In this document: positions 2,080-26,901 of the stretch, piece after piece
Layout: every line of letters begins with the position of its first letter
Position numbering within the stretch: position 1 is the first letter of the stretch
Origin: a virus
Taxonomy: Duplodnaviria > Heunggongvirae > Uroviricota > Caudoviricetes
Length of the DNA stretch: 29,572 bases
Reading direction: 5' to 3' (one strand)
IMG/VR virus record: IMGVR_UViG_3300035208_002606
Notes under the pieces: model-generated
Told to the model about the DNA's origin: nothing
The model's input: the letters and a program-made list of their open reading frames with translations, nothing else
Database searches by the model: none
Made by a program: the position numbers and the translations under genes

Positions 2080-3804
2080 ATGCCACAAACTAAAGAAGAA
2101 CGCAGGGCGCAGACATTAGCGTCCCGTAAAGGCAGAGTCAAAAGAATTTTCAGTATGTTCGGACGGCAACCCAATGCCGCAGAACTGTTGAAAAAGGAAA
2201 ACGCTGTAACCCCTTATGCGGCAGACGGATTATTCGGCAAAGGCGATTCAACGCTAACAAGGCAATATACGGACTATGTCTACGGTTCGTACCTAGTCAA
2301 ATTATCTTCCAAGGAAAGGGTCCGGGAATATTATCGTATGGCGGCTGACCCTGAAATCAACTATGCCCTTACGGAAATCTGCGATGAAATCGTGCAGGAA
2401 GATGAAAATAAAAAACTCTTCTCCATTCGCTTTGAAGATGATATGCCCGAAGCAAAACGCAATATCATTATCAACGAATTCAAAGATTTGATTATCAACC
2501 GCCTCCGCTTGGGAGATTACAATACGGTGTGGGAATGGGTTTATAAGTGGCTCGTACAAGGCATTATTATCTTTAAGGTCAACTTCTCCGAAGAAAAGGC
2601 TTCAGGTGTTGAAAGTTTGGAAGAACTTCAACCGTGGCTCGTAACCCATTATCAGGCCGAAAAGGTCGTGGACAAACAGTACAGCAAACAGGAGCAGGAA
2701 AAGAGATATTTTGTCGTGAAGGACAACGAGTCGGCAGAAGAAGGCTACAAGTATTTGGAAGAAGAAATCATTCACCTAGACAATGGCTACTGTTATGACG
2801 GCGAGTTCTTCTCCATCTTGGAGTTTGCCAAGAAGGATTGGCGGCGTTTGAATTTGATTGAAGATGCGACAGTCATCTACAAGTTGAGCCGCTCACCCCT
2901 TCGCAGAGTCTTCAAAGTTTATGTCGGCAAGATGGCTCCAAAGGATATCGAAAGGTTCCTTTACGATTTCCGTCAGAGACTTCGTGAAGATATTACCTAC
3001 GACCAAGATAAGGGAGAAATTGTAGGCTTCAATCCTATTACAATGCTTGACGATTACTTTTTCCCTGTAATGGAAGGCGGTCAGGAAACCTGTCAAGTGG
3101 ACACCATTTCTGAAAAGGACACCAAGTGGGAATCGATGGACGAGATTCGCTACTTCCTAGGAAAGGTATACAGGGCGATGAAAATTCCCGTGGGCAGAAT
3201 GAATCTCCCGAACGAGAACGGAGAATACACAACCTCCACAACAGGTAGCCGTTCAGGGGAAATCATGCGGGACGAGGTCAAGTTCTCCAACTTCACCAAG
3301 CGTCTCCAAGCCCGTTTTATGGAGCAATTCATTCAGGAACTTTTTTACAGACACTTATTTTTCCGAGGTTTGGTTGACGAATTAAAAATCAAAAAGAATC
3401 AAGTCGAAGTAAAGTTCACCCATGTCAACCCGTATTCGGAATTGAAGTCGGCAGAAGTTGAAGAATATCGTGCCACTTCTTTCGGTGCTTTAAATGCTAC
3501 ATCTCCGTATTTTTCTTTCATCTATCTCGCCAAGAGATATTTGAAGTGGACAGAAGACGAATTGAGAGATAACTTCGAGTGCTTGAAGCGTGAACAAGCC
3601 CTCATGCCACAAGGAGCAGGAGAAGAGGGCATGGCAGGCGGTGGCGGTGAAATGTTAGGCGGCGGTGGAGCGGGAGGCGAAGTTCCGGGGGCAACAACTT
3701 CCGAGGAAGAAACCACCTTGGAAGAAACCCCATCCACAGAAGCAACGGAACAAACAGGCACAGAAGTAGGAACTAGCCCCGAAACAACACTAGCACCTGT
3801 ATAA
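2080..3804 (+). CDS. gp20: Portal protein, T4 gp20 family, with a Gly/Thr/Glu-rich C-terminal tail
   Basis: Diagnostic motifs YYRMAADPEINYALTEICDEIV, LIEDATVIYKLSRSPLRRVFKVYVGKM, LDDYFFP, YRAMKIPVGR, IMRDEVKFSNF..RLQARF. Confidence 0.95.
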   Translation: MPQTKEERRAQTLASRKGRVKRIFSMFGRQPNAAELLKKENAVTPYAADGLFGKGDSTLTRQYTDYVYGSYLVKLSSKERVREYYRMAADPEINYALTEICDEIVQEDENKKLFSIRFEDDMPEAKRNIIINEFKDLIINRLRLGDYNTVWEWVYKWLVQGIIIFKVNFSEEKASGVESLEELQPWLVTHYQAEKVVDKQYSKQEQEKRYFVVKDNESAEEGYKYLEEEIIHLDNGYCYDGEFFSILEFAKKDWRRLNLIEDATVIYKLSRSPLRRVFKVYVGKMAPKDIERFLYDFRQRLREDITYDQDKGEIVGFNPITMLDDYFFPVMEGGQETCQVDTISEKDTKWESMDEIRYFLGKVYRAMKIPVGRMNLPNENGEYTTSTTGSRSGEIMRDEVKFSNFTKRLQARFMEQFIQELFYRHLFFRGLVDELKIKKNQVEVKFTHVNPYSELKSAEVEEYRATSFGALNATSPYFSFIYLAKRYLKWTEDELRDNFECLKREQALMPQGAGEEGMAGGGGEMLGGGGAGGEVPGATTSEEETTLEETPSTEATEQTGTEVGTSPETTLAPV

Positions 3805-3810
3805 AAACAC

Positions 3811-3907
3811 TAAATAATAGTGTAGGGACAAGATGTTGCAACATCATTTAAGAAACTCCGATTTTCTTAAATTACCTACACTATTTTGACATATCGGAGG
3901 TGTTAAA
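3811..3907 (+). ncRNA. Structured cis-regulatory RNA leader, copy 1 (three-way junction plus loop-SD pseudoknot)
   Basis: P1 3816-3826/3875-3885 (11 bp); P2 GATG 3832-3835/CATC 3842-3845 with loop TTGCAA; P3 3846-3855/3863-3872 (10 bp). P3 loop CTCCGAT is complementary to ATCGGAG 3893-3899, which overlaps SD GGAGG. A covarying second copy starts at 21497. Confidence 0.8.
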
Positions 3908-4738
3908 ATGTTGAAAGAATTTTTAATTAATTTATTAAAAAAAGAACATTTATCGTCCATAACAACAATTATTAAGAAACGATATAAAAATCAATATCAA
4001 AAAATTATTGAGAGAACAAATTATCTCCCTAAGAATTGTAGATTTACCGAAAGAATTTATCAAATAATAAACAACCTACAAGAAAAACCAAAATGTTATT
4101 GTGGAAAAAGTTTAAATTTTATTGATTACTCTTGTGGTTATCATGAGCATTGTTGTGTCAAATGTATAAATAATGACTTAAAAATAAAAGATAAAATTAA
4201 AAAAACTATGTTGAAAAGATATGGTGTAGAATATTCACTACAATCAGAAAAAATTCAAAGAAAAAGAAAAAAAACTAATTTAATGAAATATGGAAATGAA
4301 GATTATATAAATCTAAAAAAGCAAAAAGAAACCAATTTGATAAAATATGGAGCAACATGCGTATTGGCAGTAAGAGACATACATGAAAAAACAATGGAAA
4401 GTCGTTATAAAAAAAATTATAACCCATATAAAAATCATTATGGTAATTATAAAGGATTTAGTTATGAATCCTCTTGGGAACTTGCATTTATTAAATTTTG
4501 TTTAAATCATAATATCGAAATTGAACGTAATAAAAAAGGGTTTGTATATTGGTTCCAAGATAAAAAACATAGATATTATCCTGATTTCTATTTACCCGAA
4601 GTAGACCAATATATAGAAGTAAAGGCAGATTGGCTACTTAATGAGCAAACAAAAGAAAAAATAAAACAATTTCCGTATAAATTAGAAGTCTATACCAAAG
4701 AGAAATTAATAAACAATAGGATACTAAACAATAAATAA
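3908..4738 (+). CDS. Free-standing PD-(D/E)xK (TnsA-like) homing-endonuclease-like protein
   Basis: C-terminal YESSWE...YYPDFYLPEVDQYIEVK nuclease motif; central KKTxLxRYG/KYG repeats; Cys-rich CYCG..HCCVKC segment; much more AT-rich than the flanking portal and protease genes. Confidence 0.8.
   Translation: MLKEFLINLLKKEHLSSITTIIKKRYKNQYQKIIERTNYLPKNCRFTERIYQIINNLQEKPKCYCGKSLNFIDYSCGYHEHCCVKCINNDLKIKDKIKKTMLKRYGVEYSLQSEKIQRKRKKTNLMKYGNEDYINLKKQKETNLIKYGATCVLAVRDIHEKTMESRYKKNYNPYKNHYGNYKGFSYESSWELAFIKFCLNHNIEIERNKKGFVYWFQDKKHRYYPDFYLPEVDQYIEVKADWLLNEQTKEKIKQFPYKLEVYTKEKLINNRILNNK
4732..4737 (+). promoter_or_regulatory. Putative late promoter TAAATA overlapping the nuclease stop codon, upstream of the protease gene
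   Basis: ATAAATAA at 4731-4738, then SD gaggag and ATG 4758. Confidence 0.5.
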
Positions 4739-4757: not shown

Positions 4758-5393
4758 ATGTCTAAACAGGTTTTAATGGAAACGGTTTCCGAGGTCAAGC
4801 CCATTGTGGACAAGAAGAACAAGTCGATTTGTTTCGAGGGAATTTTCGGACTTGCGGGAAAGAAAAATCTTAACGGCAGACTCTACCCGATGACCGTTAT
4901 GGAAAAAGCCGTCAAGGATTACAACGACTCTTTCATTTCCAAACACCGTGCCTTGGGGGAACTTGACCACCCTGAAGATGCGTCTGTTAATCTCCGAAAC
5001 GCCGCTTTCATTATTGAAGAGCCGTTGAAACTTCATGAGAACGGCGAAGTCCACGGCAAGGCAAGAATTCTTGAGACTACGCCGATGGGCAGGATTGCGG
5101 CTGACCTGATGCGGGAAGGCGTTGTCATCGGCCTTTCGTCAAGAGGGCTTGGAGAAATTTCCGAGAAGGAAGTTCTTGACGAAGAGACGGGGGAGAAGGA
5201 AATGGTAAACGAAGTTTCCGACTTTTCCATCGCAAGTTTCGACCTTGTAAGTGAGCCAAGTATCGGGATGTTCGTAAGCCAATCCAAACAGGAAGAAGGC
5301 ATCAAGAAACCCGAAGAGAAAAAAATTCAGGAGAAGAAGAATCTGAATTCGGGAGACTTGGTCTCGCTGTCAGAAATTTTATTTGAGGAGTAG
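4758..5393 (+). CDS. gp21: Prohead core protease, T4 gp21 family
   Basis: NLNGRLYP, ALGELDHP (catalytic His), GLSSRGLG (catalytic Ser) and FDLVSEPS motifs; lies between portal and capsid genes. Confidence 0.95.
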   Translation: MSKQVLMETVSEVKPIVDKKNKSICFEGIFGLAGKKNLNGRLYPMTVMEKAVKDYNDSFISKHRALGELDHPEDASVNLRNAAFIIEEPLKLHENGEVHGKARILETTPMGRIAADLMREGVVIGLSSRGLGEISEKEVLDEETGEKEMVNEVSDFSIASFDLVSEPSIGMFVSQSKQEEGIKKPEEKKIQEKKNLNSGDLVSLSEILFEE

Positions 5394-5563: not shown

Positions 5564-5923
5564 ATGTCTGAACATCTCGTAGTGCATTTATTAGTTGATT
5601 TTTATGGCTGTGACGCTGACAGAACCGCAGACGAAAAATACATCGAGAAAGTATTGGTAGAGGCTAGTAAGGAAGCAGGAACGGAAACCGTTACTTCCCT
5701 TTTTCACAAGTTTGTGAATCGGGGAGTGGACGGAGTTCTGATTACTGCCGACAGTTATTACGGTATTCGCACTTGGGTCAAAGAGGGTTATGTCAGTCTT
5801 GATTTTTACTCCACAAATGAGAAAGTGGAATCTAAAAAGGCTGTGGAATATTTATTACGAAAGTTCGGAGCAACGAAATACTCCGCTTCCGAGATTAAGC
5901 GGGGAGACAAAACGGAGGTATAA
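5564..5923 (+). CDS. S-adenosylmethionine decarboxylase (SpeD/SpeH class 1B)-like protein with substituted catalytic residues
   Basis: HLLVDFYGCD..., FHKF..xGVxGV, TW..xGYxxxDFY and terminal IKRG match the AdoMetDC proenzyme fold. However, ESH is DSY, SIHTWPE is GIRTWVK and FTCG is YSTN. Confidence 0.8.
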   Translation: MSEHLVVHLLVDFYGCDADRTADEKYIEKVLVEASKEAGTETVTSLFHKFVNRGVDGVLITADSYYGIRTWVKEGYVSLDFYSTNEKVESKKAVEYLLRKFGATKYSASEIKRGDKTEV

Positions 5924-5924
5924 A

Positions 5925-6125
5925 ATGCCATTAACATCTAAAGGTAAGAAAATAATGACAGCCATGAAAAAAGAATATGGCCCCGAAAAAGGCGAACGAG
6001 TATTTTACGCTTCCGCTAACAAGGGGAAAATAAAAGGCGTTCATAAGAAAATCAAGAAAATAACCAAAGAGGATATTGCCAAGTATGCAACGGCTGAAGA
6101 AAAGGAATTCTTAAAGGAAAGTTAA
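5925..6125 (+). CDS. Small basic phage protein (66 aa) with an appended KEDIAKYATAEEK..LKE motif
   Basis: Start reassigned to ATG 5925 (SD ggagg at 5914-5918). MPLTSKGKKIMTAMKKEYG..KGERVFYASANKGKIKGV matches my recollection of a widespread small basic phage family. Confidence 0.75.
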   Translation: MPLTSKGKKIMTAMKKEYGPEKGERVFYASANKGKIKGVHKKIKKITKEDIAKYATAEEKEFLKES

Positions 6126-6769
6126 TGTCTCAAATAGATAAGCATAAGTGGAATAAAACATATCGAGAAAAAAATAAAGATAAAATTAATAAAAAACAGG
6201 AATTACTTCGAAGAAAAAAAGGAATACTTCCTCGAAAAAAATATTTAAATGATGAAGAAAGAAAAGAAGATAGAAAAGAATATCGTAAAAAATATTATTC
6301 TCTTCATAAAAAAGAAGAAATTTTTAATACAATCAATTATAATAAAAACCATGAAGAAAAAAAGCGTCTTTATGATAAAAAATATAAAAAAATTAACAAA
6401 GAAAAAATAAATGAAAGAACAAAAAAATATATCGCTAATAAAACAAAAACAGATATAAATTATAAACTTAGTAAAAATTTACGGGGTAGATTGTATCATG
6501 CCATCAAAGATAATCAAAAATCAGGCTCCGCAGTTAAAGACCTAGGGTGTTCTATTCCTGAACTCAAAACCCATTTAGAATCCAAATTTCAAAAAGGTAT
6601 GACCTGGAACAACTATTGTTATCGGGGATGGCACATCGACCATATTATTCCCCTTGCCTCTTTTAATTTAACCGATAAGGGGGACTTTTTAAAGGCTAAT
6701 CATTATACCAATCTTCAACCTTTATGGGCAGAAGAGAATTTTAAAAAAGGAAAGACACAAAAACCATAA
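6125..6769 (+). CDS. HNH-like homing-endonuclease-like protein (paralog 1)
   Basis: Lys-rich helical N-terminus; C-terminal GMTWNNY..GWHIDHIIPL...HYTNLQPLWAEENFKK (ββα-Me/HNH-type); translationally coupled by TAATG. Confidence 0.8.
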   Translation: MSQIDKHKWNKTYREKNKDKINKKQELLRRKKGILPRKKYLNDEERKEDRKEYRKKYYSLHKKEEIFNTINYNKNHEEKKRLYDKKYKKINKEKINERTKKYIANKTKTDINYKLSKNLRGRLYHAIKDNQKSGSAVKDLGCSIPELKTHLESKFQKGMTWNNYCYRGWHIDHIIPLASFNLTDKGDFLKANHYTNLQPLWAEENFKKGKTQKP

Positions 6770-6772
6770 ATA
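6767..6772 (+). promoter_or_regulatory. Putative late promoter TAAATA overlapping the HNH stop codon, upstream of the scaffold gene
   Basis: CCATAAATAA, then SD aaggag and ATG 6795. Confidence 0.55.
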
Positions 6773-6794: not shown

Positions 6795-7730
6795 ATGAAA
6801 AAAGGTTTGAAAGTATCCGAAAAGGCCGAAAAAATAAAAAAGATATTTAGTAAAATGGAAGTCGAATTAACTGAAGAACAAATAGGTTTATTTCTTTCTC
6901 AGTTTGAACTTCAAAAGAAAGAAGCCATTGAAGAGGCAATAAAGCCCGTTCAAGCCAAATTGGACGAATACACCAAACGCAATTATACTTTGGCTGGCGC
7001 ATTAGAAGAAGCAAAGGAATTCAAGGATAATTTTGAAAAGGCAATTGAAACAAAAATTAAGCAAATCGAAGCCATCAAAATCCCTGATATTCCAAAGATT
7101 GAGGAATCCCTCAACAAGTTGATGAAAGAGAAAATGGATTTGCTCGAAAAGAAAATTGCCAAGTTGGATGAAGCGGCAAACAAAATCAACGAGAAAATTC
7201 TTCCGTTGAAATTGGACGAAGACATTAAGAAAATCAATAATGTCGGCAATGTGTTTGCTAACTACAAAGACCTTTTGGCAAAAGCCTTAGTGGAAATAGA
7301 ATCTTCAGAAATTAAAACCCTGAAGGAAAAACTTATCGTGGCTGATAAAAAAGCCTCAGATACCGAAAAGAAATGTATCAAGTTGGAAGAGCAAATTCTT
7401 CAGGAGAGGACAAATACTGAAATCACTCTTCTGCTCGAAAATTCATCTTTAGACAGAGATGAGAAAGAACATCTTTACAAATATTATGAAAAAACAGGAT
7501 ATGAAGAAGGAAAAAATGAGATTCAGAAGTTTATCACTATAAAGGAATCTAAAGAAAGAGAGAAACCCGTACAACGCTCCTTTGTCCGAGAAAATGTCGG
7601 CGGCGTTAAACCCATGAATGATGTCGGGGTACTACAAAAGAAGAGGCTACTGGGCGAGTCATCCTCGTTCGCCCGTGATATTGACGAATGGGCCAATCTA
7701 GCAAGAATCGAGGAATCCGAACAAATCTAA
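6795..7730 (+). CDS. Prohead core scaffolding protein (gp22-like)
   Basis: Long K/E-rich coiled coil with many L/I-x-E sites; canonical position between protease and major capsid genes. Confidence 0.75.
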   Translation: MKKGLKVSEKAEKIKKIFSKMEVELTEEQIGLFLSQFELQKKEAIEEAIKPVQAKLDEYTKRNYTLAGALEEAKEFKDNFEKAIETKIKQIEAIKIPDIPKIEESLNKLMKEKMDLLEKKIAKLDEAANKINEKILPLKLDEDIKKINNVGNVFANYKDLLAKALVEIESSEIKTLKEKLIVADKKASDTEKKCIKLEEQILQERTNTEITLLLENSSLDRDEKEHLYKYYEKTGYEEGKNEIQKFITIKESKEREKPVQRSFVRENVGGVKPMNDVGVLQKKRLLGESSSFARDIDEWANLARIEESEQI

Positions 7731-7743
7731 AGGAGGAAACAGT

Positions 7744-9099
7744 ATGTACGGAACAGGTGAAATGAAGTTGAAAAGACTTCGTGAAAAGTGGTCACGGCTC
7801 TTGAAGGGAATTAAGAGTGCCGAGACCCGCGACATGACCGCCATCGTTCTTGAGAACCAAGAAAATGAAATGCGGACAGTCCTAAGAGAATCTACCACAT
7901 CAGGCTACGGCTTCGGCCCAGGCGTGACAAGTGGTGATGTTGACAAATTCCCAAAATTGATGATTCCTATGGTTCGCCGTATTATGCCTCAGTTGATTGC
8001 AAATGAGATTTTCGGTGTACAGGCAATGGAAGGCCCAGTTGGTATGGCATTCACCCTTCGTTGGGTTTATGATTCTACCGTGACTTGGACTGACCCCGTA
8101 ACGGGTCGTGTGTATACCACAACCGCAGAAGAGCAGGCATATATTCCAGGAACCACACAGGCAAACCCTGTGTATTCAGGCGATTATAACAATGCTGATT
8201 ACGAAAGTTCAGCAGACGATGCAACGGCAAACACGGGCGGCTTCGGTCTAAGAAATGACCGCGGCGAAATCGTTTCCGATTTGAGTTATACGGGAGCGAC
8301 ACAGGCAGTTCCAACTGCCGCACTTGGGGCAACGGCAAATCCGTACTCCGAAGGCTCGTTGAAAATCATCAATAGACTTATTGAGGCTCGTACTCGTAAG
8401 TTGAAGGCAAATTGGTCGCAGGAAGCAGTTGACGACATCAAGAAGGTTCACTCGTTGAATCTTGAGCAGGAGATTGTTGACTTCCTTTCGTATCAGATTC
8501 AGGCAGAGATTGACCGTGAGTTGATTCTTGCCGCTTACAATCTTGGTACAACCAACGGCTTGTTTACATGGGACATCGCAAGCACGGATGGTCGTTGGCA
8601 GGAAGAGAAGTATAAGACCCTGTATCACGCAATCATCAAGGCATTGAACTACATCGGTCACCAGACTCGTAGAGGTCGTGCAAATTGGATGGTTGTGTCT
8701 TCTGAGGTTGCTTCGATTCTTTCGGCAATCAAGGCATTTGACTACAGCGCAGTTCAGCCCGTGGAAGGCTTCGAGCCTTACGAGGGTGGTGAAGGTGTTG
8801 TATATCTTGGCACAATCGAAAGCGGAAAGGTTAAGGTTTACCTTGACCTGTATTGGGAAGCACCCGCAAATAACGTGGACAAGGAAATTGGCTACATCCT
8901 GATGGGTTACAAGGGAAAGAAGAGTTTCGACTCAGGCATTCTCTATTGCCCATACATCCCAGTGATGATGATGAAAACCATCTCCCCACATGACTTCCAC
9001 CCATTGCTCTCATTGGGTAGCCGTTACGCAGTCGTAACGCAACTTTTGGACACGGAGAAATATTATGCTGTTGTATCCGTAAGGAACAGCGCATTATAA
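7744..9099 (+). CDS. gp23: Major capsid protein, T4 gp23 family
   Basis: KWSRLLKG, TAIVLENQE, PKLMIPMVRRIMPQLIANEIFGVQAM.GP.G..F.LR, RKLKANWSQEA..D, LS.QIQAEIDREL, GRANWMVVS, GYKG...DSGILYCPYIP; strong SD aaggagg. Confidence 0.97.
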   Translation: MYGTGEMKLKRLREKWSRLLKGIKSAETRDMTAIVLENQENEMRTVLRESTTSGYGFGPGVTSGDVDKFPKLMIPMVRRIMPQLIANEIFGVQAMEGPVGMAFTLRWVYDSTVTWTDPVTGRVYTTTAEEQAYIPGTTQANPVYSGDYNNADYESSADDATANTGGFGLRNDRGEIVSDLSYTGATQAVPTAALGATANPYSEGSLKIINRLIEARTRKLKANWSQEAVDDIKKVHSLNLEQEIVDFLSYQIQAEIDRELILAAYNLGTTNGLFTWDIASTDGRWQEEKYKTLYHAIIKALNYIGHQTRRGRANWMVVSSEVASILSAIKAFDYSAVQPVEGFEPYEGGEGVVYLGTIESGKVKVYLDLYWEAPANNVDKEIGYILMGYKGKKSFDSGILYCPYIPVMMMKTISPHDFHPLLSLGSRYAVVTQLLDTEKYYAVVSVRNSAL

Positions 9100-9122
9100 T
9101 CCGAGAGTAAAAGAAAATTAAG

Positions 9123-9151
9123 AGAAGGCCTCTTCGGAGGCCTTCTTTTTT
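9123..9151 (+). terminator. Rho-independent terminator after the capsid gene
   Basis: Perfect 10-bp stem AGAAGGCCTC/GAGGCCTTCT with a cUUCGg tetraloop, followed by a T-run. Confidence 0.92.
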
Positions 9152-9179
9152 ACACCTAATAAGCATAATATTTCCAACA

Positions 9180-9197
9180 AAGTATGATATAATATAA
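9180..9197 (+). repeat. 18-bp direct repeat copy 1 (AAGTATGATATAATATAA) containing an extended -10 promoter TGnTATAAT
   Basis: Identical copy at 9982-9999. Confidence 0.85.
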
Positions 9198-9209
9198 AGA
9201 GAGAATAAA

Positions 9210-9461
9210 ATGAAAAAGATTTGTAGCGATTGTGGTCAAGAGAAAGTTTTGGAAAATGATTTTTATAAAGATTCATATAGTATTACAGGATATCGTAGTT
9301 ACTGTAAACTCTGTTCTAAAGAAAGGTGTAAAAAATCTTACAAAAACAATAAAACAAAAATAGACGATAAACATAATGAATGGGTGGCAAATAATAGAGA
9401 AAAATGGCAAAATTATTATGAAAATTATAAAAAAAGAATTAAATTGAAAAAATTAATATGA
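9210..9461 (+). CDS. Zinc-finger DNA-binding protein resembling the N-terminus of the next gene, with no nuclease domain
   Basis: MKKICSDC...CKLC versus MKKICSNC...CKVC in the next gene. Confidence 0.75.
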   Translation: MKKICSDCGQEKVLENDFYKDSYSITGYRSYCKLCSKERCKKSYKNNKTKIDDKHNEWVANNREKWQNYYENYKKRIKLKKLI

Positions 9462-13703: not shown

Positions 13704-13916
13704 ATGAAAACAGAACAAGAATCTTCCGTTATGTTCAATTACGATTGCAATATCTGCGGGAAGAATACTATCCGCAACGAGTACAAGAGATATCCTGTCA
13801 TTTACAAACCCACAAAAGAAACCCTTTTAATTTGCGAGACTTGTCTCAGTTTTATCAAGGATTGCGGACAGTTTTCGAGTTACGAAATTATAAAAACTAC
13901 TAAGGAGAAAAAATGA
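13704..13916 (+). CDS. Small zinc-ribbon protein
   Basis: CNIC...CETC. Confidence 0.7.
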   Translation: MKTEQESSVMFNYDCNICGKNTIRNEYKRYPVIYKPTKETLLICETCLSFIKDCGQFSSYEIIKTTKEKK

Positions 13917-14176
13917 TTAAAACGTATGTAGGAACAGAAGGACTGAAAGAATCTTGGCAGGATGACTTTGCCAAAAACATTAAATGTCCTTTTTGCGGAA
14001 ACAAGGCACATGCGGCCTTCGGCGTTTGCGAGAATTTTAAGGGAAAAAAGAAAAAGAAAGGAGAACTTATCTGTGATTTAGACCACGAAGGGATATGGCC
14101 TCACGATGTAATCGCGGCAACCGTTTATATTTGTTCTGTTTGCGGCAAGGGGTCAGTCGATTGGAATCAAGCATAA
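13913..14176 (+). CDS. Small zinc-binding protein
   Basis: CPFC...CSVC; SD aaggag; ATGA overlap. Confidence 0.75.
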   Translation: MIKTYVGTEGLKESWQDDFAKNIKCPFCGNKAHAAFGVCENFKGKKKKKGELICDLDHEGIWPHDVIAATVYICSVCGKGSVDWNQA

Positions 14177-14187
14177 AGGAGAGGAAA

Positions 14188-14658
14188 ATGAATGAAATAG
14201 TTAGTGTTCACCCTAATGGAGTGGTTAGTGTTCATGTCGAATGTAGTGCTTGCAGGGGTACGGGGCTTTATATCGGGTTTGCCGAAGGAGACGGCACAGC
14301 CGTTGTGTGTTCCCGATGCAAGGGTACGGGAAAACAAACTTTAGACTATAAGCCTTTTATCAGGCGCAACTCACCGCCTAAAAAGGTCAAGCGGGTTTTT
14401 CAAACCAATTTCGGCTACCGAACAACCCCCAATGACCCAAGCGGGATGCCCGTGGAAGATTGGGGTGCAGGTAAGCCGTTTCCAAAGGGTTCGGAAGATA
14501 GGGAACGCTCTTGCCCCGCTTGGTTCTATCAGAGCGCTGACTCTACCAAGAAACCCAATTGGGATTGGTGTAGCGGGGCTAATGTTTTTTCACAATGCGA
14601 ACATTTCCCCACAAAACAGAAGTGTTGGGAGCGTTGGGATAAGGAGTACAACAAGTGA
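14188..14658 (+). CDS. Protein with DnaJ-type CxxCxGxG zinc finger
   Basis: Start reassigned to ATG 14188 (SD aaggagagg); CSACRGTG and CSRCKGTG motifs. Confidence 0.8.
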   Translation: MNEIVSVHPNGVVSVHVECSACRGTGLYIGFAEGDGTAVVCSRCKGTGKQTLDYKPFIRRNSPPKKVKRVFQTNFGYRTTPNDPSGMPVEDWGAGKPFPKGSEDRERSCPAWFYQSADSTKKPNWDWCSGANVFSQCEHFPTKQKCWERWDKEYNK

Positions 14659-14846
14659 AAATATTGATGGACCACACCAATGAGGGAATAGCCAAAAGAT
14701 TTGATGATGTTACCCACACAGAATTGACGGAAGGGGGTGCTTTCTATGTGATAACACGTAAAGATTCCCGACTTTATATCTCCACCAATACAATTTTGTG
14801 GTTTAACGAAACTCCTGAAGAAGGGGATGATGACTTATTTTCATAA
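14655..14846 (+). CDS. Small hypothetical protein
   Basis: SD aaggag; GTGA overlap with the previous stop. Confidence 0.65.
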   Translation: MKILMDHTNEGIAKRFDDVTHTELTEGGAFYVITRKDSRLYISTNTILWFNETPEEGDDDLFS

Positions 14847-14866
14847 GAAATAAGGATATATTTTCA

Positions 14867-15055
14867 ATGAAAAAGAAAAAAATTAATTATGATGTTCCAT
14901 TTGAAATGCCACCACAACCAAATCTTTTTCCTATCGTAAATACATCGTCACGCTTCTACAAAAATTGTAAACGGCAAAGAAAACAAGAAGCCAAGATTTG
15001 TCAGGATTGTCCGTTTCGTAACGGAATAGAAGAACAGGAGAATCAATATGGATGA
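14867..15055 (+). CDS. Small hypothetical protein
   Basis: SD aagga; Cys cluster CQDC. Confidence 0.6.
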   Translation: MKKKKINYDVPFEMPPQPNLFPIVNTSSRFYKNCKRQRKQEAKICQDCPFRNGIEEQENQYG

Positions 15056-15212
15056 AAAACGAACTTGCGGTAACTGCTTATACGGCAAGAAAGTTGAAAA
15101 ATCAAAAGTAATAGTTTGTGCCACAAGCACAACATTAGAAACGAAATGGCATACCGACCCCGCTTGTGAAAAATGGCGAAAACTTAAAAAGAAATTGTTT
15201 GGGGGAAAATAA
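15048..15212 (+). CDS. Small Cys-containing protein (54 aa, not in the ORF track)
   Basis: Manually translated MDEKRTCGNCLYGKKVEKSKVIVCATSTTLETKWHTDPACEKWRKLKKKLFGGK; SD aggag; stop coupled to the next ATG (TAATG). Confidence 0.7.
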   Translation: MDEKRTCGNCLYGKKVEKSKVIVCATSTTLETKWHTDPACEKWRKLKKKLFGGK

Positions 15213-15400
15213 TGAGAAGTAGTGTTTGGGAAGAAATGGACAACGCAACGGCAAGAAGAAAAGAAGTAAATAAGAATGAGAAACAACCTTGTTTACATGA
15301 TGCCTGTCCCCAGTGTCATGGTACAGGTAAGAAAGAAGATGGAACAATATGTGTCCATCATATTTCTTGCCCCTGTCCGAAGTGTACACCAAGAATGTAA
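15212..15400 (+). CDS. Small zinc-binding protein (CxxCxGxG plus CPCPKC)
   Basis: CLHDACPQCHGTG...CVHHISCPCPKC. Confidence 0.75.
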   Translation: MRSSVWEEMDNATARRKEVNKNEKQPCLHDACPQCHGTGKKEDGTICVHHISCPCPKCTPRM

Positions 15401-21435: not shown

Positions 21436-21473
21436 AAAATGGCTCTTAATTTCTGATTAAGAGCCATTTTTTT
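21436..21473 (+). terminator. Rho-independent terminator
   Basis: 15-bp perfect stem AAAATGGCTCTTAAT/ATTAAGAGCCATTTT with a 5-nt loop and a T-run. Confidence 0.88.
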
Positions 21474-21496: not shown

Positions 21497-21591
21497 TAAA
21501 TAATAGTGTAGGGACAGGGGATGCAACCCTTTCTAAAAAGCCAATCCTTTTTAGATTACCTACAAAAAAATAAACTTGATTGGAGGTTTAT
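21497..21591 (+). ncRNA. Structured cis-regulatory RNA leader, copy 2
   Basis: First 20 nt identical to copy 1. P1 TGTAGG/CCTACA; P2 GGGG/CCCT with loop ATGCAA; P3 TCTAAAAAG/CTTTTTAGA. P3 loop CCAATC pairs with GATTGG 21578-21583, overlapping SD GGAGG. Confidence 0.8.
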
Positions 21592-22281
21592 ATGAAGAGA
21601 AAATATTTTACAGAAGAAGAAAAGAAAAATGCAGAAAAGAAAAGATATTTGGATAATAAAGAAAATATTTTAAAATACCAAAAAGAATATTATCAAAGTA
21701 ATAAAAAAATTATATCAATACGAAGTAAACAACGATATGAAAATAAAAAAGAAAAAATTTTAAAAAAACAAAAAATATACGAAGAAAAACATAGAAAAGA
21801 AAAAAGAATATACGCAAAAAAATGGTATCAAAAAAATAAAAAAGATAGACTAATACAATGTAAAAAATATAGAAAAACTCACAAAAAAGAAATAAACCAA
21901 TATTTCACCAATAAAAAACAAATAAATATTGACTATAAACTTACTTGTGTGTTACGCACTAGGTTATATATTGCTCTAAAAAATAACCAAAAATCAGGCT
22001 CCGCAGTCGAAGACTTAGGTTGTTCCATCCCCGAACTCAAAACCCATTTGGAGTCCAAATTTCAAGAAGGAATGACTTGGAAGAATTGGGGTATTTATGG
22101 ATGGCATATTGACCATATTATTCCTTTAACTTCTTTCGACCTAACCAATAGAGAGGAACTTTTAAAGGCTTGTCATTATACCAACCTTCAGCCATTATGG
22201 GCAGAAGAGAATTTAAAAAAAGGAAAAACACCACCCTTTTCAGCAAATGTTGAAAAGGGTAAAATCAATGAAAACCCATAA
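21592..22281 (+). CDS. HNH-like homing-endonuclease-like protein (paralog 2)
   Basis: Start reassigned to ATG 21592 (SD GGAGG 21582-21586). The C-terminal domain is nearly identical to that of 6125..6769 (NQKSGSAV.DLGCSIPELKTHLESKFQ.GMTW...WHIDHIIPL...HYTNLQPLWAEEN.KKGKT). Confidence 0.85.
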   Translation: MKRKYFTEEEKKNAEKKRYLDNKENILKYQKEYYQSNKKIISIRSKQRYENKKEKILKKQKIYEEKHRKEKRIYAKKWYQKNKKDRLIQCKKYRKTHKKEINQYFTNKKQINIDYKLTCVLRTRLYIALKNNQKSGSAVEDLGCSIPELKTHLESKFQEGMTWKNWGIYGWHIDHIIPLTSFDLTNREELLKACHYTNLQPLWAEENLKKGKTPPFSANVEKGKINENP

Positions 22282-22284
22282 ATA
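22279..22284 (+). promoter_or_regulatory. Putative late promoter TAAATA overlapping the HNH stop codon, upstream of the glycan cluster
   Basis: CCCATAAATAA; same ending as HNH paralog 1 (CCATAAATAA). Confidence 0.5.
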
Positions 22285-22330: not shown

Positions 22331-25300
22331 ATGCCGTATTACAAGAGCAAAACGGAAAAAGAGGTTGTTGTTAGATTAGGAAAAAATAAGAAAGAAATCA
22401 AAGTAGGAACCAAGCCCCAATTTTTACCCTACGAAGACATTCATTTATTGTTCCCAAAGTACATTACAAAACTAGGAAAGGCAGAAACGGCAACAGTTAT
22501 TAAAGAAATCAAACCCCTTACAAAACACAAAATAATAGATGAACGAATAAAAAATGAAATCATAAAACAAAACCCACAGACTTTTCAAATACACTTTCTA
22601 CAGGAAACGCTTCCTACAGGAAGTTGGAATAATCAGCGTTGTTTCATTATCGGCGGTGGGCCTTCTTTAAAGGAATTTGATTTCTCCAAACTCCAAGGTG
22701 AAAGAGTTATTGCCATCAACAAAGCATTTGTTGACGCTCCTTTTGCAGACATTCAATTTTCCGTTGACCGCCAATTTCAAGAGTGGGTGACAGACCCTAA
22801 AAAAGGCGGCGATAAAATGGCAAAGGCTCGTGATGCTTGGCCCCATTTTAAAGGACACAAGGTATGGCTCAAAGTCCCAGGAGAACATTACTTCGAAGGG
22901 ATAGAATTTGTCAAGTCAGCAGGAAATGAAGGGATTAGTCTATCACTTGAAGAGGGGGTTTATGATGGTTCCAATTCGGGATACGCCGCTCTAAACCTTG
23001 CAATCGCATTGGGGGCAAATCCAATTTATCTTTTGGGTTATGACATGAAGCATAATAATGGCAACAGCCATTATCACGAAGGATATTTTAAAGAACAGAA
23101 GGAGAACCAATTAACTCTTTTTGCGAGAAAATTTCCAAAATTGGCAGAATTAGCAAAGGAAAAAAATATTCAAGTTGTAAATCTTAATCAAAATTCCGAA
23201 CTCCAATGCTTCCCCTTTGATACACTTGAAAACGCTTTAAAGCCTGTATTCAAAGAAAAAAAAATATCCGAAAAAAATTATATCATCGTGAGTTTTTATA
23301 CTCCTGAATATACCAACGATATTTTACGACTGACCCAATCAGTAGAAAAATTTGAACTGCCATACCATTTCGAATTATTAAAACATTTACCTCTTGAAGG
23401 CAAAAACAAGCAAAACAATTGGAGCAAAAATGCATACCAAAAGGCAAATTTTATCAAAAATATGATGACAAAATTCCTCGACAAAAACATTATATGGATT
23501 GATGCCGACGCCGTGGTACAGGAATATCCTTATCTTTTTGATAACATGCCCGATTGCGATATAGCCGTTCATTATAGAAGAGGGAAAGAACTATTGACAG
23601 GAACAATGTTTATACGCAACAACGAATTGATGAAAAATGTGGTAGAAAAATGGATTTTTAAAAATGAAAAGAGTCCTTATTTTTTAGAACAAAAAAACTT
23701 GGAAGAAGTTCTTCGGGAAACCCCACAGGTAAATATTCACCATTTACCTCTTGCTTATTGTCAAATATTTGATGGGTTCGAAGGAAAATCTAGACCCGTT
23801 ATCGAACATTTCCAATCTTCAAGAAAATGGAGAAAGAAGGAAGATATTCAAAAGAAAATAACCGTTCTCATGCCCACCTACAATCAAGGGAAGTTTATTC
23901 AGGAATCCATCGACAGCGTACTTAGTCAAACCTTTACCAACTTTGAATTGATTATCGTGAATGACGGCTCTACGGACAACACGAAAGAAATCTTGGAACG
24001 ACAGACAGACCCCAGGATTAGGATTATTCACAAAGAGAATGGTGGTACGGGTTCAGCCTTAAATTTGGGATTTGAAAATGCCGTAGGGGAATACGAAACC
24101 TGGCTAGCATCGGATAATAAATATTACCCCAACGCTCTTCAAGACATGTTCAATATTTTAGAAAAAAAGAAAAATGTTGATTTCGTCTACTGTAATTGTG
24201 AAATCGGGGTTATGGACGAAACAGGATTAGGAGAAGTCACAAGAAAGAATTATAATTCAGAAATTTCAATGGAGTGGGATTCTTATAAATTTTACGAGCA
24301 TCACAATATTGGTGTTATTTGGCTATGGAGAAAGGAATTAAGATTGGTTTCAGGCACACATTTCATTACTGACCCTTGTGAAGATTATGAAATGACCATT
24401 CGGATGATTGAAGCGGGTGGAAATTTTTATTATCATCCTACTGTTTCGGGTTGGCATAGAAGGCATCCCGAAAATCTTACTAAAAAATTATTGACATCGG
24501 GGCAGTATGTTCAGAATTTAGTAAAGGCTATGGTAAATCGCAGGAATAATAAATTAAAAAGCGGTGCTGAATCCATTTTTACGAATATTTATCAGAATAA
24601 CAAATGGCACGGAACAGAATCAAGGTCGGGCCACGGGTCCACTTTAGCCGCGACAGAAAAAATAAGAGAAGGCATCCCTACACTTTTTAAAAAGTATAAA
24701 ATTAAAACGATAATTGATGCGGCTTGTGGAGATTGGAATTGGATGCGCCATCTAACAAGCACTTTGGATTTTGAAAGTTATATGGGAATAGACATTGTAA
24801 AGGATATCATTGATAAAAATATTGAAAATCATGAAAATGAAAAAATCACCTTTCATAATATGAACCTAATTAACCAAAACTTAACAACAAAAGCAGATGT
24901 GATTGTTTGCCGAGATATGCTAAACCACTTATCTAATTTTGATGTTATAGAGGTATTAAAAAATTTCATCCAATCAGGCTCCACATACATGCTGATAACG
25001 AATTTCCCAAAAGAAAGACCCAATAAAGATATTCTTACGGGTGCGTGGAGAACAATAAATTTTGGCAAAGAACCATTTGAATTCCCTTCCCCCATCGAGA
25101 CCATTAATGAAGGCTGTGATGTTACGGATATTCTTGGTACATACGAAGATAAAGAGATGGCCCTTTGGAAATTAGATGATATTGCAGAGATAATTTTTAA
25201 AGAAACTTCTAGTCCAAAACACAAACAAAGGGTAATTAACAATGCTGTTATTGAAGCCATAAAATTATTGAAACAAGCCCCCGAACCTCCCCAGCAGGCT

Positions 25301-26173
25301 AATTTATCAGAATGGTGTTTAAAGAAAATTCCTAAAAAAATATTTTTTTATTGGGGTGCGGAAGTCTTGCCGTTTTTACATTATTTAACGATTAAATCTT
25401 TTATCAAATTTAATCCCGATTGGAAGGTTATTTTTTATAGGCCCAAAGAACTTTCCTTAGAAAAACCTTGGTCGGGATGGGAACACAAATACAAATTAAT
25501 CTGTGATGATTATATGGATAAATTGTTGGAGTTGCCATTGGAATTGAGATATTTTGATGCCCGTTGTTTGGGAATGGAAAACCATTATCCCGAAATTATT
25601 AAATCGGATTTTTTAAGATGGCATTTATTGGCTACTGAAGGTGGGGTTTGGGCAGATATGGATATCATTTTTACGGCATCTATGAACCATCTCAGATTCA
25701 ATTACAAGAAGAATGAAAATGTGGATACGGTAGTTGCCATCTGTGAGGATTTCCTGCCCGAATATATGTTCCACACTATCGGGTTTATGATGTCTAGTGG
25801 TAACAATGATTATTATAATTACATTGCCGAAAAATCTAAAAAGGTAAGTAATAATTTCACAGATTATGAGATGGTCGGAAACCAATTACTAAATAAAGAA
25901 TTTCCTAGCATCAAAAAAATACAAGAAACATTTCCGTCTTTGGTTGTGGAAAATGTACCTTTCGAAAGTCTTTATGTGTATTATCCGCTTAAACGGGTTC
26001 CTGAACTTTTCAGCGAAGAGGGAATAGAAAGAAGAACCAATAATTCAATCGGAATTCATTGGTATGCTGGACATTTTTGCGTGGAAAAACCCGTCAATGG
26101 AATAACAGAGTTTAATTATAAAACATATTCTAACACCCCTATTGGGAAATTTATTCAAGAAGCGATGGAATGA
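22331..26173 (+). CDS. 1280-aa multidomain glycan-modifying protein: N-terminal module, DUF115/Maf-like transferase, GT-A (DxD), GT2, class I SAM methyltransferase and GT32-like DxD domain
   Basis: IIGGGPS..VIAIN..NSGYAALNLA..LGA.PIYLLGYDM; KANFI...IIWIDADAVV; VLMPTYN...ELIIVNDGSTD; IY..N.W...ESRSG.GS...IIDAACGD.NWM; IPKKIFFYWG...KSDFLRW..L..EGGVWADMD. Confidence 0.88.
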   Translation: MPYYKSKTEKEVVVRLGKNKKEIKVGTKPQFLPYEDIHLLFPKYITKLGKAETATVIKEIKPLTKHKIIDERIKNEIIKQNPQTFQIHFLQETLPTGSWNNQRCFIIGGGPSLKEFDFSKLQGERVIAINKAFVDAPFADIQFSVDRQFQEWVTDPKKGGDKMAKARDAWPHFKGHKVWLKVPGEHYFEGIEFVKSAGNEGISLSLEEGVYDGSNSGYAALNLAIALGANPIYLLGYDMKHNNGNSHYHEGYFKEQKENQLTLFARKFPKLAELAKEKNIQVVNLNQNSELQCFPFDTLENALKPVFKEKKISEKNYIIVSFYTPEYTNDILRLTQSVEKFELPYHFELLKHLPLEGKNKQNNWSKNAYQKANFIKNMMTKFLDKNIIWIDADAVVQEYPYLFDNMPDCDIAVHYRRGKELLTGTMFIRNNELMKNVVEKWIFKNEKSPYFLEQKNLEEVLRETPQVNIHHLPLAYCQIFDGFEGKSRPVIEHFQSSRKWRKKEDIQKKITVLMPTYNQGKFIQESIDSVLSQTFTNFELIIVNDGSTDNTKEILERQTDPRIRIIHKENGGTGSALNLGFENAVGEYETWLASDNKYYPNALQDMFNILEKKKNVDFVYCNCEIGVMDETGLGEVTRKNYNSEISMEWDSYKFYEHHNIGVIWLWRKELRLVSGTHFITDPCEDYEMTIRMIEAGGNFYYHPTVSGWHRRHPENLTKKLLTSGQYVQNLVKAMVNRRNNKLKSGAESIFTNIYQNNKWHGTESRSGHGSTLAATEKIREGIPTLFKKYKIKTIIDAACGDWNWMRHLTSTLDFESYMGIDIVKDIIDKNIENHENEKITFHNMNLINQNLTTKADVIVCRDMLNHLSNFDVIEVLKNFIQSGSTYMLITNFPKERPNKDILTGAWRTINFGKEPFEFPSPIETINEGCDVTDILGTYEDKEMALWKLDDIAEIIFKETSSPKHKQRVINNAVIEAIKLLKQAPEPPQQANLSEWCLKKIPKKIFFYWGAEVLPFLHYLTIKSFIKFNPDWKVIFYRPKELSLEKPWSGWEHKYKLICDDYMDKLLELPLELRYFDARCLGMENHYPEIIKSDFLRWHLLATEGGVWADMDIIFTASMNHLRFNYKKNENVDTVVAICEDFLPEYMFHTIGFMMSSGNNDYYNYIAEKSKKVSNNFTDYEMVGNQLLNKEFPSIKKIQETFPSLVVENVPFESLYVYYPLKRVPELFSEEGIERRTNNSIGIHWYAGHFCVEKPVNGITEFNYKTYSNTPIGKFIQEAME

Positions 26174-26901
26174 ATAATAAAGTAAGTATTATCATGCCAA
26201 CTTATAACTATGCAAAATACATACAAAACTCTATCGATGGGATTTTAAATCAGACGTATCAAAATTTTGAATTGATTATTGTGAATGATGGCTCCACGGA
26301 CAACACAAAAGAAATCTTAGAACGACAGACAGACCCTAGGATTAAAACTATTCATAAGAATAATGGGGGGTGCGGTTCTGCCTTAAACTTGGGTTTTCCT
26401 TTAGCAACAGGAGAATATGAAACTTGGTTTGCTTCTGATAATAAAATGTATCCACACGCTTTAAAAGAACTAGTATTGGTTTTGGATACAAATCCTAAAA
26501 TTGATTTCGTCTATGGCTGTTGTGGTGAAGCAGTAACCCAAAAAGACAATAGTGTCAAATTCCAAAAAGACTATAATACAGAGGGAATGATTTGGAACCC
26601 TATCGGTTTTTATGACCGATTTAATATTGGGGTTGTGTGGCTTTGGAGAAAAGAATTACGAATAAAAGCAGGAGAGAAATACATAGAAGAGCCTTGCGAA
26701 GATTATGATATGACAACCCGAATGATTGAAGCGGGTGGGCAGTTTCATTATATATCAAATCGGTTGGGGTGGTATCGAGTTCATAATGAGGGCTTGCAGG
26801 GTAAGTTGAAAAAAGAACAGCCCGATTATATTAAAAATTTAGTTATCAAGGCTAAAAAGAGAAGAGATGAAAAAATAAAAAGGGGGTTAATAATAAAATG
26901 A
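26170..26901 (+). CDS. Family 2 glycosyltransferase, paralog of the GT2 domain in the upstream giant protein
   Basis: VSIIMPTYN...ELIIVNDGSTD...EDYDM..R; near-identical DNA to 23941-24073. Confidence 0.92.
   Translation: MNNKVSIIMPTYNYAKYIQNSIDGILNQTYQNFELIIVNDGSTDNTKEILERQTDPRIKTIHKNNGGCGSALNLGFPLATGEYETWFASDNKMYPHALKELVLVLDTNPKIDFVYGCCGEAVTQKDNSVKFQKDYNTEGMIWNPIGFYDRFNIGVVWLWRKELRIKAGEKYIEEPCEDYDMTTRMIEAGGQFHYISNRLGWYRVHNEGLQGKLKKEQPDYIKNLVIKAKKRRDEKIKRGLIIK

Follow-up and report, generated by a model that had tools for sequence, protein, structure and literature searches.

Homing endonucleases are selfish genes that need enough expression to spread without harming the phage that carries them, and T4 keeps this balance with simple hairpins, each different from the next. 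Hairpins of this kind, which sequester the ribosome-binding site (RBS) of T-even endonuclease genes, were reportedly described by Gott in 1988 and by Gibb and Edgell in 2007 and 2009. Structures that hide the Shine-Dalgarno (SD) sequence limit the translation of I-TevI, I-TevII, I-TevIII and segB in T4 and of mobE in Aeh1 (PMC2988022; PMC3014915). We analysed a window of 29,572 nucleotides (nt), by which we mean the whole stretch of DNA under study (IMGVR_UViG_3300035208_002606), which carries a T4-like phage's module of structural genes. In it we describe a structured RNA that, judged from sequence comparison, probably serves a mobile homing-endonuclease cassette as its 5' leader and puts a brake, in cis, on translation of the nuclease.

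Architecture of the leader and its two copies in the window

The first copy of the leader, an RNA of about 95 bases encoded within 3811-3910, stands in front of a free-standing, AT-rich homing endonuclease gene of 276 amino acids (3908-4738, + strand), placed between the genes for the portal protein gp20 (2080-3804) and the prohead protease gp21 (4758-5393). All leader features given here for the two window copies are likewise on the + strand. Copy 1 opens with the late-promoter box CTAAATA (3810-3816; core TAAATA, 3811-3816), and the sequence that follows folds into a three-way junction. Helix P1 joins a 5' arm at 3816-3826 (core GUAGG, 3822-3826) to the 3' arm CCTACACTATT at 3875-3885 (core 3875-3879) through 11 base pairs (bp), all of them perfect. 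The junction strand J1/2 (GACAA, 3827-3831), whose GAC is present in all copies inspected in the alignments, leads into hairpin P2 (3832-3845), in which GATG (3832-3835) pairs with CATC (3842-3845) across the loop TTGCAA in the minimum free energy (MFE) fold. Hairpin P3 (3846-3872) consists of 10 perfect bp (3846-3855/3863-3872) capped by the 7-nt loop L3, CTCCGAT (3856-3862), and the junction closes through J3/1 (TA, 3873-3874), which the alignments read as UUA at the level of the family.

Directly at the end of P1, the MFE folds show a further hairpin, P4 (3885-3907; stem 3885-3892/3900-3907), with a 7-nt loop L4, ATCGGAG (3893-3899), and the SD sequence GGAGG (3896-3900) is divided between this loop and the 3' arm of P4. 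Loop L3 is the exact reverse complement of ATCGGAG, which spans four of the five nt of the SD, and the SD itself ends 7 nt ahead of the ATG at 3908. Because the SD-side partner of L3 is thus the loop of a weak fourth hairpin, the contact between the two would be a loop-loop kissing interaction. RNAfold returns the identical three-way junction as the MFE structure of copy 1 at -27.4 kcal/mol, compared with -12.9 +/- 2.7 kcal/mol for shuffled versions (z = -5.4; none of 200 shuffles folds equally well), and the inverted repeats that make up P1 and P3 were also recovered independently. A 19-codon open reading frame (ORF) that starts from an AUG inside P2 of copy 1 (3833) is not kept in other copies, and we set it aside as chance.

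The motif (A/C)(A/T)TAAATA is found 22-28 nt 5' of the starts of gp20, gp21, gp22 and other late genes of the window, and therefore behaves as the late promoter of the phage; of the 49 distinct leader copies described below, 48 have its core unchanged and one reads TGAATA. In T4, the late box TATAAATA spans -13 to -6, and Aeh1 uses CTAAATA (PMC1524935). Applying the -13/-6 rule, we predict that transcription starts at G3822 in copy 1 and at G21508 in copy 2, in each case the first base of the invariant GUAGG, and the conserved block of the distant relatives considered below likewise starts at this G. With this start, the leader's own transcript would open with a 5-bp terminal helix, and the outer 6 bp of P1 (AAUAGU/ACUAUU; extension of the 5' arm, 3816-3821) would form only in RNA that reads through from the portal gene. 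In own-promoter RNA, the P1 core of either window copy is predicted to pair with a probability of at least 0.99. By our own reading of their surroundings, a long P1 goes with a position immediately after a co-directional ORF that has no terminator (0-1 exceptions among 38), and a short P1, as in copy 2, with a terminator or a divergent gene upstream in about 6 of 10 cases. A link between the P1 extension and the upstream context is suggestive only, the short-P1 copies being close relatives.

The second copy (21497-21594) has its TAAATA at 21497-21502 and a short P1 of 6 bp (21507-21512/21559-21564), followed by P2 (21517-21530; GGGG/CCCU) and by a P3 (21532-21540/21547-21555) with a stem sequence unlike that of copy 1 and the loop L3 CCAATC (21541-21546). 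Its P4 (21572-21577/21584-21589; AAACUU/AGGUUU) carries the loop L4 GATTGG (21578-21583), which overlaps the SD at 21582-21586 ahead of the ATG at 21592. The first 20 nt of the two copies are the same. Loop and partner have both changed from one copy to the other with their complementarity retained, 7 of 7 nt pairing in copy 1 and 6 of 6 in copy 2. The two copies lead nucleases of different families, the gene behind copy 2 being a homing endonuclease of endonuclease VII/HNH-like type (phrog_1035/phrog_28061 type; 21592-22281, + strand). Just 5' of copy 2 lies an intrinsic terminator hairpin of 15 bp with a T run (21436-21470, + strand).

An earlier note on this DNA, made from the sequence alone, had drawn attention to the late-promoter hexamer TAAATA, to the three-way junction, to the exact match of the P3 loop to most of GGAGG, to a second copy and to the lack of a named Rfam family. 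All of these observations held up, and every pairing it gave for P1, P2 and P3 is in the sequence and in the MFE fold. Its geometry needs amending in two respects: it overlooked hairpin P4, and with it the kissing character of the contact, and the predicted start at G3822 lies inside the P1 that it drew. Its statement that T4 endonucleases are repressed by RBS-occluding structures agrees with the two papers cited at the outset.

Conservation, spread and downstream genes

Rfam 15 at gathering thresholds gave no match in the whole window, and at E ≤ 10 the region 3700-4000 gave just two matches, mir-1000 and NsiR4, both at chance level. We identified 86 loci in an exact-pattern scan of IMG/VR, about 30 of them with the promoter-plus-junction signature and the remainder chance, and a stricter pattern added 24 loci from JGI metagenomes. 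A covariance model, R1, was built from 22 sequences and applied to the sequences fetched by the exact patterns. Within the window R1 finds exactly two copies, copy 1 at 81 bits (E 7e-17) and copy 2 at 78 bits; the next match scores 16.8. Both copies have its layout of TAAATA-N5-P1, junction GAC(A), P2, P3, junction UUA and P1'. In related uncultured-phage contigs it gives 64 matches, 49 of them distinct, including divergent members that the exact patterns had missed. Single phage records hold 11, 8, 6 and 5 matches, one of them being a 223-kb genome that is complete and has terminal repeats. A wider pattern, TAAATA-N5-GTAGGGACA, returned 89 DNA stretches with 55 new loci, in which R1 recognised only two matches, both from one phage record already carrying copies; a pattern scan of 185,579 prokaryote genomes gave no match, and hence no hint of a prophage or host. 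On this evidence the leader is an undescribed RNA family and a ready candidate for a new Rfam family.

Changes in the helices are strongly compensatory. Across the 49 distinct sequences, 15 of the 24 modelled pairs vary on both sides (131 cells), a level that none of 500 shuffles reaches, and 89.6% of cells are paired, compared with 46-50% when the partners are slid. P3 shows compensatory changes at 8 of its 10 pairs and P2 shows changes on both sides at all 3 modelled pairs; P1 variants covary as GUAGG/CCUAC, GAAG/CUUC, GAAA/UUUC and GAGA/UCUC, and the junction letters GAC(A) and UUA stay constant while P1 varies. About 7 junction nt are conserved: these letters and the P1 core are nearly invariant and the rest drifts, with J2/3 only 0-1 nt long and the first 20 nt of the leader near-identical across insertion sites. 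The helices contain 68 G-U pairs and 18 A-C mismatches, an excess that points to RNA of the sense strand and not to a DNA palindrome. Taken together, the alignments indicate that the leader structure is real, far above chance and strongly backed by covariation.

Of these comparisons, that of the kissing contact gives the strongest signal. The loop of P3 occurs in 35 different sequences in the family, and all L3 sequences are distinct inside each genome (10 of 10, 5 of 5, 7 of 7 and 2 of 2). The earlier note had named covariation between loop and SD as the decisive check, and asked for a covariance model with the downstream genes tabulated; the covariation comes out overwhelmingly in its favour. 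Among the 48 copies with enough tail, 45 show Watson-Crick complementarity of the whole loop to the flank of their own SD, compared with 10 of 2220 (0.45%) when loops and tails are mismatched. Two of the three exceptions are complete with one G-U pair, and the third is an orphan leader without a gene. The target is the segment just 5' of, and overlapping, the copy's own SD; in 46 of 47 copies it shares 1-5 nt with the SD window, and in 41 of 47 members the tail folds so as to place it in a hairpin loop. The spacer from the P1 core to L4 measures 11-19 nt, mostly 13-15. P4 is weak (-1 to -6 kcal/mol), and the mean energy of the isolated loop-loop duplex (6-7 bp) is -7.5 kcal/mol.

All 47 copies with the kissing contact precede an endonuclease ORF or its remnant. 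The 41 intact downstream ORFs fall into three unrelated clusters, with 21 endonuclease VII/HNH-like proteins, 17 GIY-YIG proteins with NUMOD3 and 3 of DUF7487, and 6 further ORFs are truncated remnants of the same three families. The gene behind copy 1 belongs with the last of these. The PD-(D/E)xK label that the earlier note gave it, for a fold that is putative, is in keeping with a PD...EVK motif seen by eye, with Pfam DUF7487 and with matches to PHROG endonuclease and homing-endonuclease families; phmmer against PDB and an NCBIfam search gave nothing informative for this protein. Since one leader is common to three unrelated nuclease families, control by the encoded nuclease, or scaffolding of it, is unlikely, and the distribution appears to show that regulatory RNA modules, and not only nuclease genes, are exchanged among mobile cassettes.

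Some copies are decayed (L138:1501-1570, L052:8854-8927 and L119:1501-1574). In one of them the 3' half of P3 is gone and the leader is joined to a truncated endonuclease frame; another is an orphan, with neither an SD partner nor an ORF behind it; and in the remaining one TGAATA replaces TAAATA and the ORF is truncated. Such forms fit the usual life cycle of homing elements. Separately, P2 is in many copies a perfect 8-nt palindrome of the form GTNNNNAC (for example at L001, L011 and L086, and at 3832-3845 of the window), which therefore has a self-complementary tetraloop (AAUU, UGCA, AGCU or CAUG); loop-loop dimerisation and a site acting at the DNA level are both possibilities.

Four pattern matches (L073/L115, L074, L012 and L025) represent more distant relatives. 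They have the form TAAATA-N5-GUAGG GACA ... UUA CCUAC with a P2 and P3 of their own (L115:1501-1582, + strand; L074:193-272, + strand; L012:1989-2062, - strand; L025:2391-2468, + strand), all lie within phage tRNA islands, and none has an SD or ORF downstream of the junction. A divergent gene, endonuclease-like by its motifs and with weak family matches, begins 12-20 nt upstream of their promoter box, and the SD region of that gene finds a complement of 7-9 nt in the P2 loop of the junction strand; in L073 and L074 a perfect TATAAATA stands on the opposite strand at the mirror position. We considered a tRNA-like reading of the junction and rejected it, as ARAGORN calls no tRNA in the distant relatives and, by our own reading, the loops break the rules for anticodon loops. 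The arrangement suggests that the relatives may be a trans-acting, antisense version of the leader, like the partner RNA of a type I toxin-antitoxin pair, a lead that comes from two independent lineages only, with L012 and L025 favouring a different MFE fold that makes their membership uncertain.

A probable translational brake and the alternatives to it

The late promoter TAAATA would start the RNA at G3822, the first base of the 5'-terminal helix P1, and P1, P2 and P3 would build the three-way junction with its invariant letters GAC(A) and UUA. Some 13-15 nt beyond P1 would come the weak P4, whose loop and 3' arm each hold half of the ribosome-binding site. With the two loops kept close by the junction, L3 (6-7 nt) would pair with L4 in a kissing interaction, and this helix and the P4 stem would together conceal the SD from the 30S subunit and keep nuclease synthesis low. 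Such a brake would suit a known requirement of phage homing endonucleases, whose translation has to be limited or delayed. In read-through RNA, the six extra bp of P1 would put P4 flush on P1 and probably give a tighter lock, akin to the situation in T4; this extension would belong to copies directly behind a co-directional gene, as copy 1 is behind the portal gene. The own-promoter RNA retains P2, P3, P4 and the contact, so that translation is probably braked constitutively, and more tightly on read-through transcripts. We infer the repression by the contact, as well as the start of transcription and the role of the P1 extension, from the arrangement of these parts.

Several points weigh against a brake of this kind as the full account. 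A plain hairpin is enough for a brake, and the conserved junction with its invariant letters is not explained by a brake alone; it hints at an added role, such as the binding of a factor or ligand, protection of the 5' end or pre-organisation of the contact. The start site is derived from the T4 rule, the energy of the loop-loop contact covers the isolated duplex only, and the correlation between P1 length and context is confounded by the common ancestry of the short-P1 copies. In addition, two endonuclease genes of the same window (6125-6769 and 9210-9461) have no leader, and phage and host are both uncultured. If the junction is given a task of its own, the leader could be a true switch, with the junction as its aptamer or operator: GAC(A)/UUA would be bound by a metabolite or by a protein of phage or host, and the binding would stabilise or free the contact, so that nuclease synthesis would follow a signal. 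The near-invariance of the junction letters and P1 core against the general drift would suit such a switch, as would the sufficiency of a bare hairpin for a constitutive brake and the resemblance of an aptamer-like junction with a loop contact to an RBS hairpin to cobalamin-type expression platforms. We nevertheless find it unlikely, as there is no Rfam aptamer match even at E ≤ 10, the conserved junction amounts to about 7 nt with a J2/3 of 0-1 nt, we noticed no conserved alternative fold that would exclude this one, and the 6-7 Watson-Crick kissing pairs are long enough to form unaided. The earlier note had proposed a compact translational switch that might respond to a metabolite or to the nuclease itself, or else a scaffold RNA bound by the nuclease. 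What stands of this is a conserved leader that pairs with the nuclease SD; switching of the riboswitch type finds no support, nothing speaks for a metabolite response, with the same absence of an aptamer family and of a conserved alternative fold and with a contact that should form without ligand, and autoregulation by, or scaffolding for, a nuclease is improbable for a leader common to three unrelated families. A related and still tentative idea, to which we give limited weight, is that of an addressable module, in which a factor from phage or host, or else a small molecule, would recognise GAC(A)/UUA and open or lock the contact, and the hypervariable matched loops would serve as a private address for each cassette, with action in trans also possible; we entertain it because the loops differ within each genome and because the relatives in tRNA islands point the same way.

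Bacterial mRNAs are stabilised by 5'-terminal stem-loops, for example that of ompA, and the junction might likewise be a stabilising or processing module at the 5' end of late transcripts, guarding that end against decay that begins there or marking a site of cleavage, with the contact mainly keeping the leader compact. The predicted +1 is the first paired base of P1 and leaves no 5' overhang, the P1 core is predicted to be almost always paired in own-promoter RNA of both window copies, and related junctions occur in tRNA islands without a downstream ORF. A module of this sort would leave unexplained both the overlap of the loop partner with the SD in 46 of 47 copies and the exclusive tie to endonuclease genes, and it is compatible with a brake rather than exclusive of it; as the main function we think it improbable. 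Much further from what we see is a site for homing or recombination in the DNA, a palindrome bound by protein, or an RNA that the nuclease would hold as guide or scaffold, like omega-RNA or HEARO. The leader does move with mobile cassettes, its first 20 nt are near-identical at different insertion sites and several P2 hairpins are perfect 8-mers; the ratio of G-U to A-C (68 to 18) instead favours single-stranded sense RNA, the variable loop fits the copy's own SD and not a foreign target, and neither HEARO nor any other Rfam family is matched. Homing enzymes of the GIY-YIG, HNH-like and PD-(D/E)xK-like types are, moreover, guided by protein. We give these DNA-level and guide readings hardly any credence, and return to the brake as the reading of choice in what follows.

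Phage setting and comparison with known systems

The head and structural module of the phage is broken up by AT-rich islands, each with one free-standing homing endonuclease gene. Its major capsid protein gp23 (7744-9099) shares no more than 34% identity with its counterpart in any cultured phage, cyanophage T4-likes coming closest, and a megablast search of 50,697 phage records with the region from gp20 to gp21 gave no match. The gene at 6125-6769 is an endonuclease VII/HNH-like paralogue of 21592-22281 (75% identity across 300 nt); its start overlaps the stop of the previous ORF (TAATG, 6121-6127), which suggests translational coupling. The gene at 9210-9461, within an AT-rich island, comes after the gp23 terminator (9120-9149) and a TATAAT-like box (region 9099-9210). 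Late-promoter boxes lie in or at the 3' end of inserted endonuclease ORFs (4732-4737, 6767-6772 and 22279-22284) and serve the host genes downstream (gp21, the gene at 6795 and the gene at 22331), so that the cassettes are bracketed by late promoters; T4 has promoters embedded in seg and mob genes in the same layout.

Other features of the window concern neither leader nor nucleases. Between the head protease and scaffold genes lies a gene for S-adenosylmethionine decarboxylase (5564-5923; PF02675, 6.7e-28), an auxiliary metabolic gene amid the head module. The region 13704-15400 holds about 7 small ORFs (54-156 amino acids), packed tightly or overlapping and mostly with CxxC pairs. Direct repeats of about 222, 60 and 90 nt with 73-74% identity (23852-24460 and 26176-26778) connect a 1280-amino-acid ORF (22331-26173) with the following ORF (26170-26901), as a duplicated domain or gene segment.

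Among described RNAs, none of the curated Rfam families, including RF00174, HEARO and the riboswitches, reaches a gathering-level score. Like HEARO and the omega-RNA of IsrB, the leader is a structured RNA beside a nuclease gene in mobile DNA, but it is far smaller, has no Rfam match and has a variable segment that fits its own SD and not a DNA target, and its nucleases are classical homing enzymes guided by protein. In cobalamin expression platforms an aptamer loop makes a kissing contact with an RBS hairpin, and the cobalamin riboswitch (RF00174) therefore shares with the leader a loop-loop contact and a structured upstream domain with an RBS hairpin; the leader, however, has no cmscan match to it, no core resembling the B12 box and no indicated ligand, and its contact is hypervariable over 6-7 bp whereas that of the riboswitch is short and conserved. 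In the antisense controllers CopA/CopT (R1), RNAI/RNAII (ColE1) and Sok/hok, complementarity of loops over 6-7 nt likewise sets specificity, loops diverge but stay matched to their partners, and the target includes a translation initiation region of a harmful gene. These controllers act in trans with two RNAs, whereas the window leader would act in cis, and only the relatives in tRNA islands might act in trans.

The closest comparison is with the I-TevI-type hairpins of T-even phages, which likewise conceal the SD of a phage homing endonuclease with a cis RNA structure, combined with a T4-type late promoter, and of which part forms only on read-through RNA, as would the outer 6 bp of P1 here. 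In the leader, too, the SD is predicted to be base-paired (GGAGG 3896-3900, in the L4/L3 kiss and the P4 stem). The I-TevI type, however, uses one stable hairpin, whereas the leader has no single stable stem-loop and combines a weak P4 with a kissing loop from a three-way junction; and the late promoter of the I-TevI type lies within the hairpin, so that late RNA escapes, whereas here it precedes nearly the whole structure, only the 6-bp P1 extension is lost and the lock would be kept. The leader has no sequence homology to the T4 hairpins and is a sequence-conserved, multi-copy family across three nuclease families, so that a lineage of large uncultured T4-like phages appears to have one portable RNA device in 5-11 copies per genome. 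It would be a clean natural example of a translational lock made by a kissing loop in cis, with 35 natural "compensatory mutants", and possibly a compact, programmable part for tuning translation. We regard the leader as a new structural variant of the T4-type principle of RBS sequestration.

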